Below are positions 2,247 to 23,680 of a stretch of DNA of 32,000 nt, piece after piece (position 1 is the stretch's first letter; the number at the start of each line of letters is the position of its first letter). The position numbers and the translations under genes are program-made. The stretch covers positions 990,001 through 1,022,000 of the forward strand of contig NZ_CP074694.1 in assembly GCF_018398935.1 (NCBI RefSeq), read 5' to 3'. The stretch comes from Telmatocola sphagniphila (lineage in GTDB: Bacteria > Planctomycetota > Planctomycetia > Gemmatales > Gemmataceae). The notes below the pieces were generated by a model. That model saw only the letters and a program-made list of their open reading frames with translations. It was not told where the DNA came from and made no database searches.

Positions 2247-4967
2247 ATGCGACTCGGTTTCCTCCTTTTTGCCTTTCTTCTCGCGCTGTCACCCACTGGG
2301 GTACGCGCGGATGAAAAATCGGAAAATGCAGCTCTGTTGAAAACGGTCAGTACCGTTTTCGACGGAATTCAGCATGATACTCTCCCGAACGGCTTGCGGA
2401 TCTACCTGAAGCCCATCCCCAACGCGACGACGGTAACCACCATGGTCGGTTACAAAGTGGGTTCCGCGGATGAGGAGTTGGATCAGACCGGTCTATCACA
2501 CTATCTGGAACACCTGATGTTCAAAGGCACGGATAAGATCATGCCCGGCGACATCGATCGTTTGACTCAACGTAACGGCGGTCACAACAACGCCTACACT
2601 ACAGAGGACATGACGATCTATCACTTCGATTTCGCTGCGGATCGCTGGATGCAGGCCCTGGAAATCGAAGCCGACCGTATGAGACATTTGAAAATCGACG
2701 CCCAACATGAATTTGAGCAGGAAAAAGGCGCGGTCATATCGGAGTTGGATGGTAACGAGGATGACCCTTGGGAGCTGGAAAATAAAGCCCTCTTGCCATT
2801 GCTATTCGGAAAGCAGACTCCCTACGGACATCCGGTGATCGGCGAAAAAACTCACGTCCGGGCGGCCGCGGCGGAGATCATCAAACAGCATTACGATCGC
2901 TGGTATCATCCCAACAACGCCGTTCTGGTGGTCGCCGGGGGATTCGATGCAAAAGCTGCTCTGGCCAGGATAAAAGAACTCTTTGGACCCATCCCGGCCG
3001 CCAAACTTCCTGAGCGAAAACCGGTACCCAAGGAAGTGGATCGCACCAGGATATTAAAGTCGAAGTTTCAGTCGAAGTTCGATACCCCCCGACTGCTCGT
3101 GGGCTTTAATACCTGCACGATCGGTGAGCCGGACGATCCCGCCCTCGATGTCATTCAGCATGCCTTGACCGATGGACGGATGTCTCGGCTTTATAAGCAA
3201 CTGGTCGAAGGCGAAGAGGTGGCCACCACCGTGGTTTCGAACAATAATACCGGACGATATCCCGGCTGGTTTGAGATCAGAATCGAACTGGCGGATGTCG
3301 AAGGCATTCCCAAAGCGGAGAAAACTCTTCAGGGCGTCCTGAAGCAGATCAGCAAAGACGGGCTGAGCCAGACGGAATTTGCCCGCGCCAAACGATCATT
3401 CATCGCTTCCTATGTTTTCAACCTGGAAGATGTGCACAACCTGGCGGATTTGATAACTCGTTCCGTGCTCGATAAAGATCTGGATTATTTGAAATCTTCC
3501 CTGCCGAGGCTGATGGCCATCTCGAATTCGGACATAAAGCGGGCGGCCCGAAAGTACTTCGTCGATCGCAAACCAGTCATCATCGAATCCATGCCCAAAG
3601 CAACGGAGAAAAAGAAAGTCGGGGCGACCGCCTCCGAAAACGTGGTTTCCGTGCTCGGCCGACAGCAGGCCGCGGTGAAGGGTTCGCCGATTTATGATTT
3701 CAGTAAGGCCCGCCACGAAACCTTACCCAACGGTCTGCGGGTGGTACTGCTCGAGAATCACCAACTGCCCATCGCTTTTCTGAATGCTTACGTCCAGAAT
3801 GTGACTATGTACGAACCGCCTCAACTGTTCGGCATCGCGCATCTGACCGGGAATATGCTCGATGAGGGGACCAAGAAGCATACGGGCCAACAGATCGCGG
3901 AGATCATCGAAAGCCGGGCCGCCAAAATGTCTTTTAGCCCCAACGGCGGCGTGATGAAACTCCTGTCTTACGATCTGAAAGCCGGCATCGATATCTTCTT
4001 CGAATGTCTGACAACACCGGCATTTCCAGCTAACGAACTCGAAAGCCAGCGAGAGGCGTTACGGACGCAGATTCAGGAAGAAGAACGAAAAGCCAATGAA
4101 CGGGCACGCATCGAATTTTACGCTCGAGCCTACGGCGAACACCCCTACGGGCGGGCCGGCATGGGCAATCTGGAAGTGATTGCCAAACTGAAGGCCGAAG
4201 ATCTTAGAAAGTATCACCAGCAGGTTTTTGTCCCGAATAACACAATTGTGGCCGTCGTGGGGGATTTCAATTCCGATGAAGTTCTGAAATGGCTGACCGC
4301 GGCGACCGCTCACTGGACCAGGACCAAGCTTCCCGAGTTGCCAAAGATCGTTGTGGAGAAACCCAAGGAAGGGCAAGAGAAAATTCTCATCGACAACGAG
4401 GCTTCTCAACTGCACGTGTACATCGGCCATGTCGGTGTGGCCCGAACCAATCCCGATTTTTTCAAGCTGATGGTGTTCGATAATATTCTCGGTACAGGGC
4501 CAGGATTTACCGACCGACTTTCGGCCAATTTGCGCGATCGTCAGGGGTTGGCCTACACGGTGAATGCGACCATCACGGCCACCGCCTCGGATGAACCGGG
4601 TCTTTTCATAGGATATATTGGCACTTTTAACGATAAATTCGCTCAGGTGAAGGCCGGTTTCCTCAAGGAGATCAATCAACTTCGCGAAGAAAATCCCAGT
4701 GCTGTAGAGGTGGAAAACGCTAAAAGGTTTCTGATTGGCAGTCTGCCTTTTACGTTCTCATCGAATCAAAAACTCGCCGAAAGTCTGCTGATGATGGAGC
4801 GGTACGGCTTCAAAAACGATTATTTTGAGAAATTTGTCCGGGAAGTTGAGTCGGTTACACCCGCTCAAGTCACAGAAATGGCCCGCAAGTACATTGACCC
4901 TGCTAAACTTATAATAGTGGCGGCGGGGGCAATTGATCGTAATGGTCAACCTTTGAAGAAAGACTGA
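2247..4967 (+). CDS. Secreted M16 (pitrilysin/insulinase) family zinc peptidase with two tandem M16 units
   Basis: N-terminal signal peptide (MRLGFLLFAFLLALSPTGVRA). The first half has the inverted zinc motif HYLEH, followed by a downstream E. The second half (from about ETLPNGLRVVLLENH) repeats the fold without the HxxEH motif. Confidence 0.9.
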   Translation: MRLGFLLFAFLLALSPTGVRADEKSENAALLKTVSTVFDGIQHDTLPNGLRIYLKPIPNATTVTTMVGYKVGSADEELDQTGLSHYLEHLMFKGTDKIMPGDIDRLTQRNGGHNNAYTTEDMTIYHFDFAADRWMQALEIEADRMRHLKIDAQHEFEQEKGAVISELDGNEDDPWELENKALLPLLFGKQTPYGHPVIGEKTHVRAAAAEIIKQHYDRWYHPNNAVLVVAGGFDAKAALARIKELFGPIPAAKLPERKPVPKEVDRTRILKSKFQSKFDTPRLLVGFNTCTIGEPDDPALDVIQHALTDGRMSRLYKQLVEGEEVATTVVSNNNTGRYPGWFEIRIELADVEGIPKAEKTLQGVLKQISKDGLSQTEFARAKRSFIASYVFNLEDVHNLADLITRSVLDKDLDYLKSSLPRLMAISNSDIKRAARKYFVDRKPVIIESMPKATEKKKVGATASENVVSVLGRQQAAVKGSPIYDFSKARHETLPNGLRVVLLENHQLPIAFLNAYVQNVTMYEPPQLFGIAHLTGNMLDEGTKKHTGQQIAEIIESRAAKMSFSPNGGVMKLLSYDLKAGIDIFFECLTTPAFPANELESQREALRTQIQEEERKANERARIEFYARAYGEHPYGRAGMGNLEVIAKLKAEDLRKYHQQVFVPNNTIVAVVGDFNSDEVLKWLTAATAHWTRTKLPELPKIVVEKPKEGQEKILIDNEASQLHVYIGHVGVARTNPDFFKLMVFDNILGTGPGFTDRLSANLRDRQGLAYTVNATITATASDEPGLFIGYIGTFNDKFAQVKAGFLKEINQLREENPSAVEVENAKRFLIGSLPFTFSSNQKLAESLLMMERYGFKNDYFEKFVREVESVTPAQVTEMARKYIDPAKLIIVAAGAIDRNGQPLKKD

Positions 4968-20670: not shown

Positions 20671-20699
20671 TCGTTAAATCGCTTTCCAAGTGGTCTTTG

Positions 20700-20730
20700 A
20701 CCGGAGCCGAGTGGCTCCGGTTTCATTTCC
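20700..20730 (+). terminator. Rho-independent terminator after the BON gene
   Basis: ACCGGAGCC-GAGT-GGCTCCGGT is a perfect 9-bp stem with a tetraloop, followed by TTCATTTCC. It lies 30 nt after the stop at 20670. Confidence 0.65.
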
Positions 20731-20788
20731 CCCCCGAATATCGCTATCCGCTTTACTTGCAAAACCTGCGATTGCTAAAATCAGCGAT

Positions 20789-22096
20789 ATGATCTCCGAC
20801 CTAGAAGATACCATTGTCGCGCAAGCGAGTGTGCCCGGGGCGGCCGTGCGCGGCATCGTCCGACTCTCGGGGCCCAAGGCCTTCGAGATTGTCAACCAGC
20901 TGTTTCACAATCCGGATCCTTCGCAAAAATTTCAGTCCGGCTCTTTGCGGATTCAAGGATTGGAGAGCCCGCTACCGGCCTTGGTACTTCGCTCGAATCA
21001 GCCGAACACTTATACCGGTCAGGACCTGGTGGAGATTCATCTCATCGGCTGCCCGCCGGTCGTGGATGCCTTACTGGCGGAAATTCTGAATCGGGGTGCC
21101 CGTTCGGCGAATCCGGGCGAATTCACTTTACGAGGATTCTTGAACGGCAAACGAGATCTGACTCAATCGGAAGCGGTTCTGGCCGTTATCGAAGCCCGGG
21201 ATTCCGTGCAATTAAAGCAGGCCTTAAATCAGATGGCGGGCGGCGTCTCCACACCTTTGGTTCAAATGCGGGAAGATCTTCTGAATCTCCTGGCCGATGT
21301 CGAAGCAGGTCTCGATTTCAGCGAAGAGGATATCGAATTTATTGATCGCAAGGATCTTTTACTGAGGCTGGGGAAAGCCCTGGCTCAGTTGACGAATCTG
21401 CGCCGGCAACTGGAAGATCGAGCTGTGGAAGGTCGGATGTTCCGGGTCGCTTTGGTGGGTAAACCGAATGCCGGAAAAAGCAGCTTGTTTAACGCTTTGG
21501 CGGGCGATCAGGCAGCCATCGTCAGCCCGGTGGCCGGGACTACACGAGATTATGTAACGCGATCGATTCAGCTTTCAGGTCAGAAAATTGAATTGATCGA
21601 CACCGCTGGCTGGATGAGAACGCACACGGAAATCGACGAACAGGCCCAACACCTGGGGAGAGAACGGACCGGCGAAGCGGAATTGATTCTGGAGTGTATC
21701 GAATCCACCCGTTATGCCGGCGAGACATCTGAGGTTTCCAGCCGTCACATTCGCATCCTGACCAAGTGCGATTTGCATCCTGGACCGGAGGGCTGGATTC
21801 GCACCAGCAGTGAAACTTTCTTTGGGCTCGCGGAATTGCAGGCACGAATCGTTCGTCAGGCGACCGACTTTTTTCATCCAGCCCTCGCGTCGAGTCTGTC
21901 GCGTTGTCGACATCACGTGGATCGCTCGATCCTCCACCTTCGCAATGCGCACAATTCGGTTCTATTCGAGGATCCCGCGGAGATCTTGGCCGCCGAAGTG
22001 CGTCTGGCGCTCGATCAGTTGGGTGAGATGACCGGGGCGATTTACACCGAGGATTTGCTGGGCCGAATTTTCAGTAGATTCTGTGTGGGGAAATAG
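20789..22096 (+). CDS. mnmE: tRNA modification GTPase MnmE (TrmE)
   Basis: DTIVAQASVPG..VRGIVRLSGP N-terminus. G-domain motifs GKPNAGKSSLFNAL, TTRD, DTAG and TKCD. The family-typical C-terminal FCVGK is present. The track ORF opens at 20690, but that extension overlaps the upstream terminator, so the ATG at 20789 (MISDLEDTIVA) is preferred. Confidence 0.92.
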   Translation: MISDLEDTIVAQASVPGAAVRGIVRLSGPKAFEIVNQLFHNPDPSQKFQSGSLRIQGLESPLPALVLRSNQPNTYTGQDLVEIHLIGCPPVVDALLAEILNRGARSANPGEFTLRGFLNGKRDLTQSEAVLAVIEARDSVQLKQALNQMAGGVSTPLVQMREDLLNLLADVEAGLDFSEEDIEFIDRKDLLLRLGKALAQLTNLRRQLEDRAVEGRMFRVALVGKPNAGKSSLFNALAGDQAAIVSPVAGTTRDYVTRSIQLSGQKIELIDTAGWMRTHTEIDEQAQHLGRERTGEAELILECIESTRYAGETSEVSSRHIRILTKCDLHPGPEGWIRTSSETFFGLAELQARIVRQATDFFHPALASSLSRCRHHVDRSILHLRNAHNSVLFEDPAEILAAEVRLALDQLGEMTGAIYTEDLLGRIFSRFCVGK

Positions 22097-22104
22097 ATGG
22101 GCGC

Positions 22105-22163
22105 AAAAAAAACACCCGGCTGATTGACCACCTCTCCCATAGTCAATCAACCGAGTGCTTTTT
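22105..22163. terminator. Bidirectional intrinsic terminator hairpin (H1): A8 - 16-bp stem - 13-nt loop - CTTTTT
   Basis: The 5' arm at 22113-22128 (CACCCGGCTGATTGAC) pairs with the 3' arm at 22142-22157 (GTCAATCAACCGAGTG). The stem is flanked by A8 (22105-22112) and T5 (22159-22163). On the plus strand it sits 17 nt after the mnmE stop. On the minus strand it is followed by U8. Confidence 0.65.
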
Positions 22164-22224
22164 AGTCGGATATTCTGTCAATGGTCTGACAGGATTTTCA
22201 GGTTTCCCTGAATTATTTTGATTA

Positions 22225-22271
22225 ACGCCCGACTGTTGTACCACCTCTCCCATGGCCATTCAGTCGGGCGT
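22225..22271 (-). other. Hairpin H2, a homolog of H1 with the same 14-nt loop motif
   Basis: ACGCCCGACTG (22225-22235) pairs perfectly with CAGTCGGGCGT (22261-22271). The 25-nt loop contains ACCACCTCTCCCAT (22240-22253), identical to 22127-22140 in H1. Confidence 0.6.
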
Positions 22272-22296
22272 CTATGGCTCTCGCCGAAAAACTATA

Positions 22297-22313
22297 TTGC
22301 AGGAGCTGTGCCA
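22297..22313 (-). promoter_or_regulatory. Putative sigma54 (RpoN) -24/-12 promoter
   Basis: Minus strand reads TGGCACAGCTCCTGCAA, against the consensus TGGCACG-N4-TTGCW. The GG and GC dinucleotides have the exact canonical spacing and TGGCAC matches 6/6. The mismatches are A for G after TGGCAC and C for the first T of TTGC. The predicted start is near 22287, directly upstream of H2. Confidence 0.45.
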
Positions 22314-22738
22314 ATCGTATTTCAAGACCAATTTTTTGGGACTTCAGACATCCTAAATCGCGAAATACCAAGGATTTTAGTGCGAATTTAGATCTCCCAT
22401 TTTTCCCAGATGTAAAATATTCATTTGCCGAACGATGCACAATCTGCTGGCAAGGCGAACGATTTCTGCCTAAAAAATGCGCAAATCAAAGTGGATCATA
22501 ACTCAAAACATACGGAAATTCTGAGGTGGCTCAGATTATCCAGAATTTATTTTCTGACATTTCCATTTTGGATGGTTTATCTCGAAAAATTGCTGCTTTT
22601 TCTAGCAGACATTTTGTTACCCTTAAGAGTAACCCAAATTCTGATACGGCTCTCCCTGAAACATCGCACCCGAAAGACTCGATTAGCCGAATAGAATACT
22701 AATTCAGGAGCTTAACCCAAAACACGGATGTATTAGGA

Positions 22739-23680
22739 ATGGCCACTGATATGCGACTCAAAGAAGGTCTGCCGGAAATCACCGAAAGCCTGTTGGCGAC
22801 GTACACCGAGTGCAGCCGCATCAACCATCTTGGGCATCAGTCGTTGCCCAGCCGGGAAGCGGTCCAGTCCATCATGGACGATCTTTACGAAGTCATTTAT
22901 CCCGGCTTCGGCAAGCGCCAGAACTTGCACATTGGCAATGTCGAATACTACGTGGGCAGTCTGATCGATGCCCTCCACGATAAGCTGACCATTCAAATCG
23001 CCCGAGCCCTCCGCCACGAACTGGCGGCGGAGTCCCCCAACGTCGATTTTGAACAACTGGCTCAAAAAAGAGCGATCGAATTCCTGAAAAAACTTCCGGA
23101 AGTGCGAACGACACTCGATTTGGATGTCGCCGCCGCGTATCGGGGCGACCCGGCTGCGCATAGCCATCACGAAATTATCTTCTGCTACCCGGGACTGGAA
23201 GCGATTACCGTTTATCGCCTAGCCCACGAACTGCTGCAACTCGGTGTGCCCTATATCCCCCGGATGATGACCGAAGTAGCCCACTCCAAGACAGGGATTG
23301 ATATTCATCCCGGCGCTTCCATCGGGCCCGGTTTCTTCATCGATCACGGTACGGGTGTCGTCATTGGAGAAACTTGCGAGATCGGGACTAATGTCAAGCT
23401 TTATCAGGGTGTGACTCTCGGAGCTTTAAGCTTCCAGACCGACGCCGATGGAGAACTGGTCCGTGGGACCAAACGCCATCCGACGCTGAAGGATGATGTC
23501 GTGGTCTATGCCAACGCCACCATCCTGGGAGGCACCACTATCATTGGCGAAAGATCGGTTGTAGGCTCGAACGTCTGGTTAACTCACAGCGTCGCGGCCG
23601 ATACCGTCGTCGTGCTCGAGAAACCTTCCCTTCGCTTGAAGGGGGCCGCCACCCGCGAAGGCATTATGTATCACATTTGA
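22739..23680 (+). CDS. cysE: Serine O-acetyltransferase (long form)
   Basis: The C-terminal left-handed beta-helix hexapeptide region reads [40 protein letters not shown]...[21 protein letters not shown]. It is preceded by the SAT N-terminal helical domain ([27 protein letters not shown]). The ATG at 22751 is an alternative start. Confidence 0.88.

Follow-up and report, generated by a model that had tools for sequence, protein, structure and literature searches.

A putative sigma-54-driven small RNA gene of an undescribed family next to cysE in Telmatocola sphagniphila and related Gemmataceae

The planctomycete Telmatocola sphagniphila (Gemmataceae) most likely harbours a genuine small RNA gene of about 182 nt, which is preceded by a sigma-54-type promoter and belongs to an undescribed RNA family found in one to four copies next to the cysE gene in related planctomycetes. 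The gene occupies the minus strand at positions 22313-22105 of a 32,000-nt stretch of contig NZ_CP074694.1 (the window), where it comprises a TGGCAC-N5-CTGCA box and five hairpins, the last of which is followed by U8. An earlier note, based on the sequence alone, had described a sigma-54 promoter, four hairpins and a U8 tract at this site, and each of these elements is indeed present where the note placed it. Its interpretation as a sigma-54-driven, structured small RNA on the minus strand is supported as well, on stronger evidence than was available when it was proposed.

The promoter-like box, TGGCACAGCTCCTGCA, lies at 22313-22298 on the minus strand and shows one mismatch to TGGCAC-N5-TTGCW, the -12 element being CTGCA rather than TTGCA, while the GG and GC doublets are spaced exactly as in the consensus. 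It is one of three hits with one mismatch or fewer in the 32-kb window, and of those three only this one keeps both doublets. The predicted transcription start is 22287 (plus or minus 2 nt), the 12th base after the C of the -12 GC, which is the usual geometry of sigma-54 promoters, and the RNA would begin UCGGCGAGAGCC. There are no expression data for any member of the family, and therefore the start, the end and sigma-54 dependence are predictions. The predicted transcript (22288-22104) folds at -86.4 kcal/mol (z = -10.9), with 0 of 200 shuffles as stable. For 22100-22300 the minus strand yields -90.9 kcal/mol (z = -9.5) and the plus strand -66.5 kcal/mol (z = -5.2), i.e., the plus strand is 24 kcal/mol weaker.

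At the predicted 5' end a 3-bp mini-hairpin, GGC-GAGA-GCC (GGCGAGAGCC, 22285-22276), is capped by a GNRA tetraloop. This element was missed in the earlier note, yet it turns out to be the most conserved part of the family after the apical loop. It is followed by a long hairpin at 22272-22224 (the note's H2), the tip of which is CCAU-GGGAGAG-GUGG with the loop at 22251-22245, and which scores 66.6 bits (E = 1e-14) with R1, the covariance model of the family built here. Two 6-bp hairpins come next, UUCAGG-GAAA-CCUGAA at 22212-22197 and CUGUCA-GACCAU-UGACAG at 22192-22175. Both are specific to Telmatocola, a point on which the earlier account needs correction. The former is possibly the diverged counterpart of a second GGCGAAAGCC mini-hairpin at 3408-3399 of the related locus L167, an inference from comparison, whereas the latter has no counterpart in the other loci aligned. 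The second long hairpin (22163-22107, loop GGGAGAG at 22138-22132) forms the stem of the intrinsic terminator, is followed by the U8 tract at 22112-22105, the predicted 3' end, and was also flagged on the minus strand by a terminator scan. It scores 36 bits (E = 9e-7) with R1. Also overlooked was that the two long hairpins are paralogues, which are 79% identical over 39 nt and share an identical 14-mer, ATGGGAGAGGTGGT, at their tips. The note had argued for the minus strand from two wobble pairs in the terminal stem. This claim holds and is understated, since the model-aligned pairs of the terminal hairpin contain five G·U pairs and no A·C on the minus strand.

Conservation in related genomes had been put forward at the outset as the test of this interpretation, and the test is passed. 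Homologous loci were found independently of the RNA sequence, through CysE homologues, and the units were then recognised by sequence upstream of cysE, always on the strand opposite to it, in six other source loci: L167, L168, L169, L170 (Zavarzinella formosa, 2 copies), L171 (Tuwongella immobilis, 4 copies) and L173/L174, which carry the same sequence. Model R1 finds 14 modules at 36-88 bits, and one of these, L173/L174, was not used to build the model and still scores 49 bits (E = 2e-11). Outside the cysE-linked loci R1 gives no hit at E <= 1 among 41 sources searched, and none at E <= 0.01 in 472 kb of metagenome contigs that each contain the loop 11-mer twice. The family was sampled only next to cysE, in seven source loci, and its copy number elsewhere in these genomes was not assessed. 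One Gemmataceae-like genome (L172) has no copy near cysE, the cysE contig of the closest relative (MAG GCA_043744995.1) ends 94 bp upstream of the gene and thus could not be checked, and locus L164 is uninformative, as it stems from the same strain and is identical over 801 nt. Comparable U-runs follow the last hairpin in L167, L168_B, Zfor_a, Timm_a-c and L174.

The conserved neighbour is cysE, rather than mnmE. A scan of genome contigs with MnmE gave relatives of 53% identity or less, and the contigs of the two closest MnmE proteins (67% and 60%) have other genes downstream, and none of these contigs holds the RNA. A metagenome scan with the two-loop pattern GGGAGAGGTGG-N87-117-GGGAGAGGTGG returned at least 120 loci, all of those examined being purine-rich tandem repeats, 5' ends of tRNA genes or REP-like palindromes, and none matched by nhmmer or by the model, although true homologues beyond these are not excluded. 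Viral contigs contained no match to the 18-mer. Within the window, a possible third, decayed copy at 22585-22661 is not supported (5.5 bits, E = 0.2).

The promoter box is kept at a fixed distance from the transcribed unit. In 11 of 12 promoter-led units it lies 12-13 nt before the mini-hairpin, and in the 153 kb scanned the same relaxed pattern matches 14 times, 11 of them at the small RNA units and 3 elsewhere, where about 2 matches are expected by chance. GG and GC are invariant columns in the alignment of 11 homologues. The supplementary tables of PMC12316311 list RpoN with all three domains for T. sphagniphila SP2 (KIH39_11425) and T. immobilis (GMBLW1_31100), and a further table gives 14 and 18 next to these organisms, apparently activator counts. 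Neither rpoN nor an activator gene is encoded in the window. Upstream of the promoters no 9-mer (one mismatch allowed) is shared by 7 or more of the 12 regions, and an inverted repeat at 22350-22388 of the window is not conserved, which leaves the presence of an upstream activator binding site, expected about 70-150 bp away, undecided.

The structure is supported by compensatory changes. In the R1 alignment 92.7% of cells are paired, compared to about 40% when the partners are slid, 12 of 23 pairs carry changes on both sides, and 0 of 500 shuffles reach the observed covariation score. This alignment was fitted by the model, which favours the structure, but an independent MAFFT/RNAalifold run gave 10 of 20 covarying pairs. 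The apical loop GGGAGAG is invariant, and the 11-nt stretch GGGAGAGGUGG, i.e., the loop and the adjoining GUGG, is invariant in 12 of the 14 aligned modules. The mini-hairpin sequence GGCGARAGCC is kept in 12 of 13 aligned units, its loop being GAGA or GAAA only on this strand. Across the family G·U pairs outnumber A·C mismatches 39 to 6, and GNRA loops and U-tails occur on the minus strand only, which fixes the strand. An Rfam match on the plus strand had been named in advance as a finding that would overturn the proposal. However, no Rfam family explains the region on either strand, with no hit at gathering score in the window or in five homologous loci and no relevant hit at E <= 10 or E <= 5. 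There is no conserved ORF, and the unit is not the leader of a downstream gene, since the downstream neighbour differs in every genome and in the window no same-strand gene lies downstream, as mnmE converges on the unit.

Taken together, sequence comparison shows a unit composed of a sigma-54 -24/-12 box, a spacer of 12-13 nt, a 5' GNRA mini-hairpin (GGC-GARA-GCC), a short linker and a long hairpin with covarying stems and a nearly invariant tip, the last hairpin plus a U-run being an intrinsic terminator. It likewise shows that relatives carry one to four such units in tandem, upstream of cysE and divergent from it, whereas Telmatocola and contig L167 have one promoter driving a two-hairpin “dimer”. 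The RNAs predicted from each Tuwongella and Zavarzinella copy would be 75-80 nt long. What the RNA does, in contrast, is inferred. In this view, transcription needs RpoN and an enhancer-binding activator, such that the RNA would be made only on a signal, starting near 22287 and ending in the U8, with the mini-hairpin protecting the 5' end. The RNA would act in trans through the exposed purine-rich loop and the adjoining GUGG, most likely by base pairing with pyrimidine-rich CCACCUCUCC-type sequences in another RNA, and two loops in one transcript (Telmatocola) or several gene copies (Tuwongella) would raise the dose of that loop. We consider a real minus-strand small RNA gene of this family very likely and sigma-54 dependence likely, while action by loop base pairing rather than protein capture is about as likely as not.

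In favour of pairing, four relatives encode an exact CCACCUCUCC complement, unpaired and just before a covarying terminator, in a putative RNA on the other strand at the same locus. Yet, no target was identified. The partner RNA is absent from the window, and apart from the locus itself nothing in the window matches the complement of the loop better than chance. Moreover, the duplex energy between the loop region and cysE (-60 to +30) is at background in 6 of 7 genomes, and only T. immobilis stands out, at the 1% tail.

Among the alternatives, a different mechanism for the same RNA survives best but appears unlikely: a protein-capturing decoy of the CsrB/RsmZ kind, where each long hairpin presents a GGA to bind and hold a CsrA-like translational repressor. 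GGA lies in every apical loop, the Telmatocola RNA has three hairpins with GGA at or in the loop, and multiple copies or hairpins would raise the binding capacity. PMC12316311 reports CsrA genes in Planctomycetia and cites sigma-54 promoters upstream of csrA in Pirellula, but the presence of CsrA in the genomes studied here was not examined, nor was binding. However, most family members carry a single GGA hairpin per transcript, while known decoys carry several sites and a CsrA dimer needs two. The loop context is U-G-GGA-G-A (UGGGAGAG) rather than A-N-GGA-N, the invariance of 11 nt in 12 of 14 modules exceeds what a GGA-binding protein would demand, and no Rfam CsrB/Rsm model matches.

It is even less likely that the functional product is a plus-strand (cysE-strand) RNA, the pyrimidine-rich CCACCUCUCCC loops of which would pair with ribosome-binding sites, with the minus-strand features as by-products. 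The plus strand does fold better than shuffles, pyrimidine-rich loops are the usual seed of base-pairing small RNAs, and in four relatives a plus-strand RNA of 180-188 nt with a CTTGAC -35-like box and its own covarying terminator is predicted over the distal copy, at about 2048-2229 of L170 in Z. formosa and about 1038-1219 of L171 in T. immobilis. Yet, the wobble ratio, GNRA loops, U-tails and sigma-54 box favour the minus strand, and R1 scores plus-strand matches at 19 bits or less. In the window the plus strand runs straight out of the mnmE stop codon and lacks a CTTGAC box and a terminator of the relatives' type, and copies near cysE in the relatives lack the plus-strand promoter.

A two-way terminator for mnmE combined with a duplicated, REP-like palindromic repeat and a chance promoter match is disfavoured and very improbable. 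The terminal hairpin is flanked by A5 and U8, starts 11 nt after the mnmE stop and on the plus strand still forms 14 bp followed by U5, and thus could also terminate mnmE, and palindromes containing GGGAGAGG are common in unrelated genomes. However, these palindromes do not match the model, the unit is conserved where mnmE is not the neighbour, box and mini-hairpin keep their spacing, and the loop is invariant while the stems covary. Furthermore, there are no other copies in the window or among the 41 sources searched, although the whole genome was not scanned. Finally, a very small protein starting within ATGGGAGAGGTGGT (MGEVV...) can be rejected, because the frames opened by an ATG in many copies (38 aa in the window, 9 aa, MGEVVQRFG or MGEVVRRFG, in several relatives) vary from 0, 6, 9, 22, 38 and 62 to 72 aa without a conserved end, L174 has ACG instead of ATG, the ATG sits inside a stem with no ribosome-binding site upstream, and downstream substitutions are matched by changes in the opposite arm of the stem rather than by codon position.

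The closest known counterparts are the Qrr1-5 small RNAs of Vibrio (RF00378), which likewise combine an activator-requiring sigma-54 promoter, several near-identical gene copies per genome (1-5 for Qrr, 1-4 here), a short RNA ending in an intrinsic terminator and an invariant stretch presumed to contact targets. There is no sequence or structure similarity, and neither the Rfam model nor the conserved 32-nt region of Qrr is matched. The phylum differs, the invariant element is a purine-rich hairpin loop instead of a largely single-stranded pyrimidine-containing seed, and the copies are clustered in tandem next to cysE rather than dispersed; neither the activator nor any Hfq dependence is known for the family described here. 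CsrB and RsmX/Y/Z share GGA displayed in hairpin loops, repetition of the hairpin within a transcript or as gene copies, and an intrinsic terminator, but beyond the differences given above they are not sigma-54 dependent. Other sigma-54-dependent small RNAs (CrcZ/CrcY, GlmY, Pxr of Myxococcus, NrsZ), compared here by Rfam scans only, are also stand-alone non-coding genes behind a -24/-12 promoter, the expression of which is therefore all-or-none and tied to one activator and one signal. They are unrelated in sequence and fold, none has a 5' GNRA mini-hairpin followed by a single long hairpin with a GGGAGAG loop, and none is described from Planctomycetota. The arrangement in the four relatives, where a second RNA carries two sites complementary to the small RNA loop, corresponds to the layout expected if one RNA titrates the other, as in sRNA-sponge pairs such as GcvB-SroC or AgvB/AsxR. 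Here, the partner would be encoded antisense to one of the small RNA copies with its own promoter, and no interaction has been shown.

A more speculative and rather doubtful possibility is that Gemmataceae carry a two-RNA switch at the cysE locus. A set of sigma-54-driven “sibling” RNAs would display the purine-rich GGGAGAGGUGG, which contains the ribosome-binding-site core GAGGUG, and an RNA of about 182 nt from an ordinary promoter, antisense to one sibling, would carry two CCACCUCUCC motifs that resemble the 3' end of 16S rRNA. One RNA would be the regulator, acting on ribosome-binding sites or their masking sequences, and the other its signal-controlled sponge, while in Telmatocola only the sigma-54 RNA is seen, as a two-loop fusion. 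This would be the first regulatory RNA circuit described in Planctomycetota, with sponge and regulator encoded on opposite strands of the same DNA.

Planctomycetes have large genomes, a complex cell biology and many sigma-54 activators, yet we know of almost no regulatory RNAs described for them, and literature searches found none for Gemmataceae. The family described here provides a concrete entry point: a compact, easily assayed RNA with a predicted on/off promoter, an obvious functional element in the invariant loop and natural variation in copy number from 1 to 4. The covariance model was specific on all the DNA that could be tested and could be run over all Planctomycetota genomes to annotate the family. 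The layout of the Vibrio Qrr RNAs, multi-copy sigma-54 small RNAs, appears to have arisen separately in a distant phylum, and if the opposite-strand partner RNA is real, the locus would be a rare natural case of a small RNA and its sponge encoded antisense to each other.

The conserved unit lies in the 642-bp spacer between mnmE (20690-22096) and cysE (22739-23680) of Telmatocola sphagniphila, a species placed by the NCBI taxonomy in Planctomycetota, Gemmatales, Gemmataceae. Both genes are located on the plus strand and are confirmed by Pfam, and the encoded MnmE protein is 100% identical to that of T. sphagniphila. The longest mnmE frame comprises 468 aa with a GTG start, yet the database protein has 435 aa and a gene call in a Logan assembly 461 aa; the true start is uncertain. 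The spacer is AT-rich, with a GC content of 37-45% compared to about 55% in the flanking genes, and a Logan assembly of the same strain is identical over its whole length.

Read on the minus strand, the spacer contains TGGCACAGCTCCTGCA at 22313-22298, which has one mismatch to TGGCAC-N5-TTGCW and the correct GG-to-GC spacing. The predicted transcript 22288-22104 folds into five hairpins at -86.4 kcal/mol (z = -10.9). For the interval 22100-22300 the minus strand yields -90.9 kcal/mol (z = -9.5) and the plus strand -66.5 kcal/mol (z = -5.2), and the last hairpin together with U8 is reported as a minus-strand terminator. All elements that the earlier note had listed, i.e., the promoter-like box, the ordered hairpins and the terminal stem followed by U8, are real. 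Two features had been missed. A 3-bp, GAGA-capped mini-hairpin, GGCGAGAGCC, is positioned at 22285-22276, right at the predicted 5' end. Moreover, the first long hairpin (termed H2 in the note) and the terminal hairpin are paralogues, which are 79% identical over 39 nt and share an identical 14-mer, ATGGGAGAGGTGGT, at the tip, while differences in one arm of the stem are matched in the other arm.

Three approaches to identify relatives failed. A comparison with Rfam 15, which the earlier note had put forward as a check, gave no match at gathering score in the window and nothing meaningful at E <= 10. The spacers downstream of mnmE in related genomes, likewise proposed for comparison, were not informative: the best relatives in a protein search of genome contigs are 53% identical or less, and the two contigs with the closest MnmE proteins carry other genes downstream. 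Finally, a metagenome scan with a two-loop pattern returned, among the matches examined, unrelated purine repeats, 5' ends of tRNA genes and REP-like palindromes. Palindromes of the type CCTCTCCC-N3-5-GGGAGAGG are frequent between genes in unrelated high-GC genomes (locus L004 at 2258-2395 and many of the loci L044-L163), and tRNA genes starting with GGAGAGGTGGCCGAG also match the loop 11-mer, but neither is related to the present family.

In contrast to MnmE, CysE is far better conserved (76-86% identity), and contigs carrying CysE homologues harbour unusually long non-coding stretches upstream of the gene. These stretches span 440-1210 bp in three JGI contigs, 1120 bp in Zavarzinella formosa, 2230 bp in Tuwongella immobilis and 700 bp in a Gemmataceae MAG. 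Searches with nhmmer and blastn revealed the Telmatocola hairpin in these regions, including an exact 22-mer, and always on the strand opposite cysE, as in the window. In the closest relative, MAG GCA_043744995.1 (L165, 1-94), the cysE contig ends 94 bp upstream of the gene, exactly where the sRNA region would start; an assembly break at repeated sRNA copies is possible but unproven. The gene order cysE-atuA-enoyl-CoA hydratase-acetyltransferase of this MAG matches the window.

In total, 14 hairpin modules were found in seven source loci. The Telmatocola window and the locus L167 each contain two modules fused in one transcript or unit, respectively, L168 contains two separate units, L169 one module, L170 (Z. 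formosa) two, L171 (T. immobilis) four, and L173/L174, which carry the same sequence, one. The non-coding stretches of 2.2 kb in T. immobilis (L171, 770-3000) and 1.1 kb in Z. formosa (L170, 1880-3000) hold tandem arrays of four and two sRNA genes, spaced about 420-600 bp apart. Each promoter-led unit comprises TTGGC(A/G/C)C-N5-(T/C/A)(T/C)GC(A/T/G) followed by 12-13 nt, the mini-hairpin GGCGA(G/A)AGCC, a linker of 1-6 nt, a long hairpin of the form (G)UCACCCG...CUGGCCAU-GGGAGAG-GUGGUACAG...CGGGUGA(C), and a U-run.

A covariance model built from 12 units (R1) scores all modules at 36-88 bits and detects the L173/L174 copy, which was not part of its seed, at 49 bits (E = 2e-11). Among the 41 sources searched, the model gives no hit at E <= 1 outside the cysE-linked loci, and it gives no hit at E <= 0.01 in 472 kb of metagenome contigs that each contain the loop 11-mer twice. 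Sampling was confined to cysE neighbourhoods, and neither the distribution of the family nor its genome-wide copy number is established. Rfam has no match for the homologous loci either. One 6.5-Mb genome (L172, 1-4445) has no copy near cysE; here, mnmE lies 3 kb upstream of cysE with three genes in between, and a loose mnmE-cysE linkage may thus be ancestral, with the sRNA lost or moved. Within the window, TACGGCTCTCCCTGAAA at 22645-22661 resembles the antisense of the mini-hairpin region (14 of 17 positions) and is followed on the minus strand by small hairpins with a terminator-like site at 22608-22593. This region (22585-22661) might be a decayed extra copy, but the model scores it at only 5.5 bits (E = 0.2).

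The earlier note had asked whether the structure is supported by covariation among related genomes. On the model-fitted alignment 92.7% of cells form standard pairs, compared to 32-41% when partners are slid by 1-3 columns. Twelve of 23 pairs carry changes on both sides, and none of 500 shuffles reaches the covariation score. The counts derive from 14 related sequences, and the fitted alignment leans towards the structure, yet an independent, plain MAFFT alignment folded with RNAalifold produced the same helices, with 10 of 20 covarying pairs. The mini-hairpin and the tip of the long hairpin barely vary and hence say nothing about structure, but rather point to sequence-specific recognition. 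The strand is set by three features: G·U pairs number 39 against six A·C cells, which would be G·U on the other strand; the loop of the mini-hairpin is GAGA or GAAA (GNRA) on this strand only; and strong U-runs follow the hairpin on this strand in most copies.

Conservation of the promoter-like element in relatives had also been named as a criterion, and it was observed. A relaxed -24/-12 pattern occurs 14 times in the 153 kb scanned, where about two matches are expected by chance, and 11 of these hits lie 12-13 nt upstream of a mini-hairpin. The twelfth unit, L168_A (in L168), has CGGCGC. GG and GC are invariant columns of the alignment. With the usual sigma-54 geometry the predicted start falls at about 22287, and thus the RNA would begin with the mini-hairpin; there are no expression data. 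The supplementary tables of PMC12316311 list an RpoN with all three domains for T. sphagniphila (KIH39_11425) and T. immobilis (GMBLW1_31100), and a further table gives counts of 14 and 18 next to these organisms, which apparently refer to enhancer-binding proteins. The window itself encodes neither rpoN nor an activator, and no shared activator site was found upstream of the promoters. An inverted repeat in the window at 22350-22388, CTAAATTCGC / GCGATTTAG, located 40-75 nt upstream of the sigma-54 box, could be an activator site, but nothing similar is shared by the relatives. In the T. immobilis and Z. formosa arrays, a purine-rich, GAAAAGAA-like tract lies about 75-95 nt upstream of each promoter.

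Taken together, the earlier interpretation of the region as a sigma-54-driven, structured small RNA gene on the minus strand is supported. The comparison of sequences shows the anatomy of the gene, its conservation, its structure and its strand, whereas we infer that transcription from the sigma-54 promoter depends on an activator, that the 5' stem stabilizes the RNA, and that the RNA acts in trans through the exposed GGGAGAG loop and the adjoining GUGG. The 11-mer GGGAGAGGUGG is invariant in 12 of the 14 modules while the rest of the stem drifts, and only two T. immobilis copies differ within it. This pattern fits base pairing with a CCACCUCUCC-like sequence better than recognition of a bare GGA by a CsrA-type protein; most units also contain only one GGA hairpin, in a UGGGAGAG context.

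Other explanations fare less well. The terminal hairpin is flanked by A5 and U8 and may double as a terminator of mnmE, but this function cannot explain the conserved promoter, mini-hairpin and loop in genomes where mnmE is located elsewhere. In the DNA examined the unit is not a dispersed repeat. Nor is it a leader, since the downstream same-strand gene differs in every genome (secA, an esterase, a TIR protein, a GFO/IDH oxidoreductase), and in the window mnmE converges on the unit. A coding function is ruled out, as frames through the conserved ATG have lengths of 0, 6, 9, 22, 38, 62 and 72 aa and one copy has ACG instead; an 80-aa gene called by JGI over the two-hairpin sRNA of L167 on the cysE strand (3318-3560) is probably spurious, since no reading frame is conserved across the family.

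As a candidate target, cysE was tested and rejected, since duplex energies with the cysE start region are at background in six of seven genomes. Only in T. immobilis does CUCCCAUGGCCA (L171, 2990-3003), which spans the cysE start codon, provide a 12-nt complement of GGCCAUGGGAG of the sRNA (top 1% of background), and the other six genomes show nothing comparable. Why the genes stay next to cysE is unexplained. A conserved TTGACC-N17-TAnnAT promoter-like site 40-70 nt before cysE in Zavarzinella (L170, 2934-2962) and Tuwongella (L171, 2932-2960) suggests that cysE has its own promoter and a short leader, separate from the sRNA array.

A putative second RNA was noticed in four relatives at the copy farthest from cysE, namely in Z. 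formosa (L170, 2048-2229), L168 (3308-3495), L169 (3614-3793) and T. immobilis (L171, 1038-1219), in each case on the plus (cysE) strand and antisense to the sigma-54 unit. In order, this strand carries a CTTGAC -35-like box 39-46 nt before the hairpin, with a -10-like hexamer 17-18 nt after the box (flagged by a promoter scan in T. immobilis), the antisense of the whole sigma-54 unit, an unpaired CCACCUCUCC(C), and a hairpin with a U-run. The latter hairpin, which forms the RNA's own covarying terminator, has 14 pairs, six of which carry changes on both sides among three sequences, and a U·G pair is invariant on that strand. The predicted RNA is 180-188 nt long in all four loci and contains two CCACCUCUCC-type motifs, one in a loop and one unpaired. 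In T. immobilis the unpaired motif is AUCUCUCUCC, which matches the variant loop (GGGAGAGAU) of the copy it overlaps. This arrangement looks like a partner RNA with two sites complementary to the loop of the sigma-54 RNA. The partner is not present in the Telmatocola window. It supports the idea that the loop works by pairing, but no interaction has been shown.

The closest analogue in design is the Qrr family of Vibrio, with a sigma-54 promoter, several sibling copies and a shared invariant element. Membership in this family is excluded, because the Rfam model does not match and the sequence, fold and phylum all differ. CsrB/Rsm decoys share hairpins with GGA in the loop, but most members of the present family lack the multiple sites that define such decoys. 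The possible partner RNA is reminiscent of sRNA-sponge pairs. Our literature searches revealed no described sRNAs in this phylum, and we consider the unit a new RNA family within the class of sigma-54-dependent sibling sRNAs. Dosage seems to matter for this family: relatives multiply the gene, up to four tandem copies, while Telmatocola and L167 instead duplicated the hairpin within one transcript. In L167 the second module keeps its own GGCGAAAGCC mini-hairpin, and the GAAA hairpin of Telmatocola may be its diverged counterpart.
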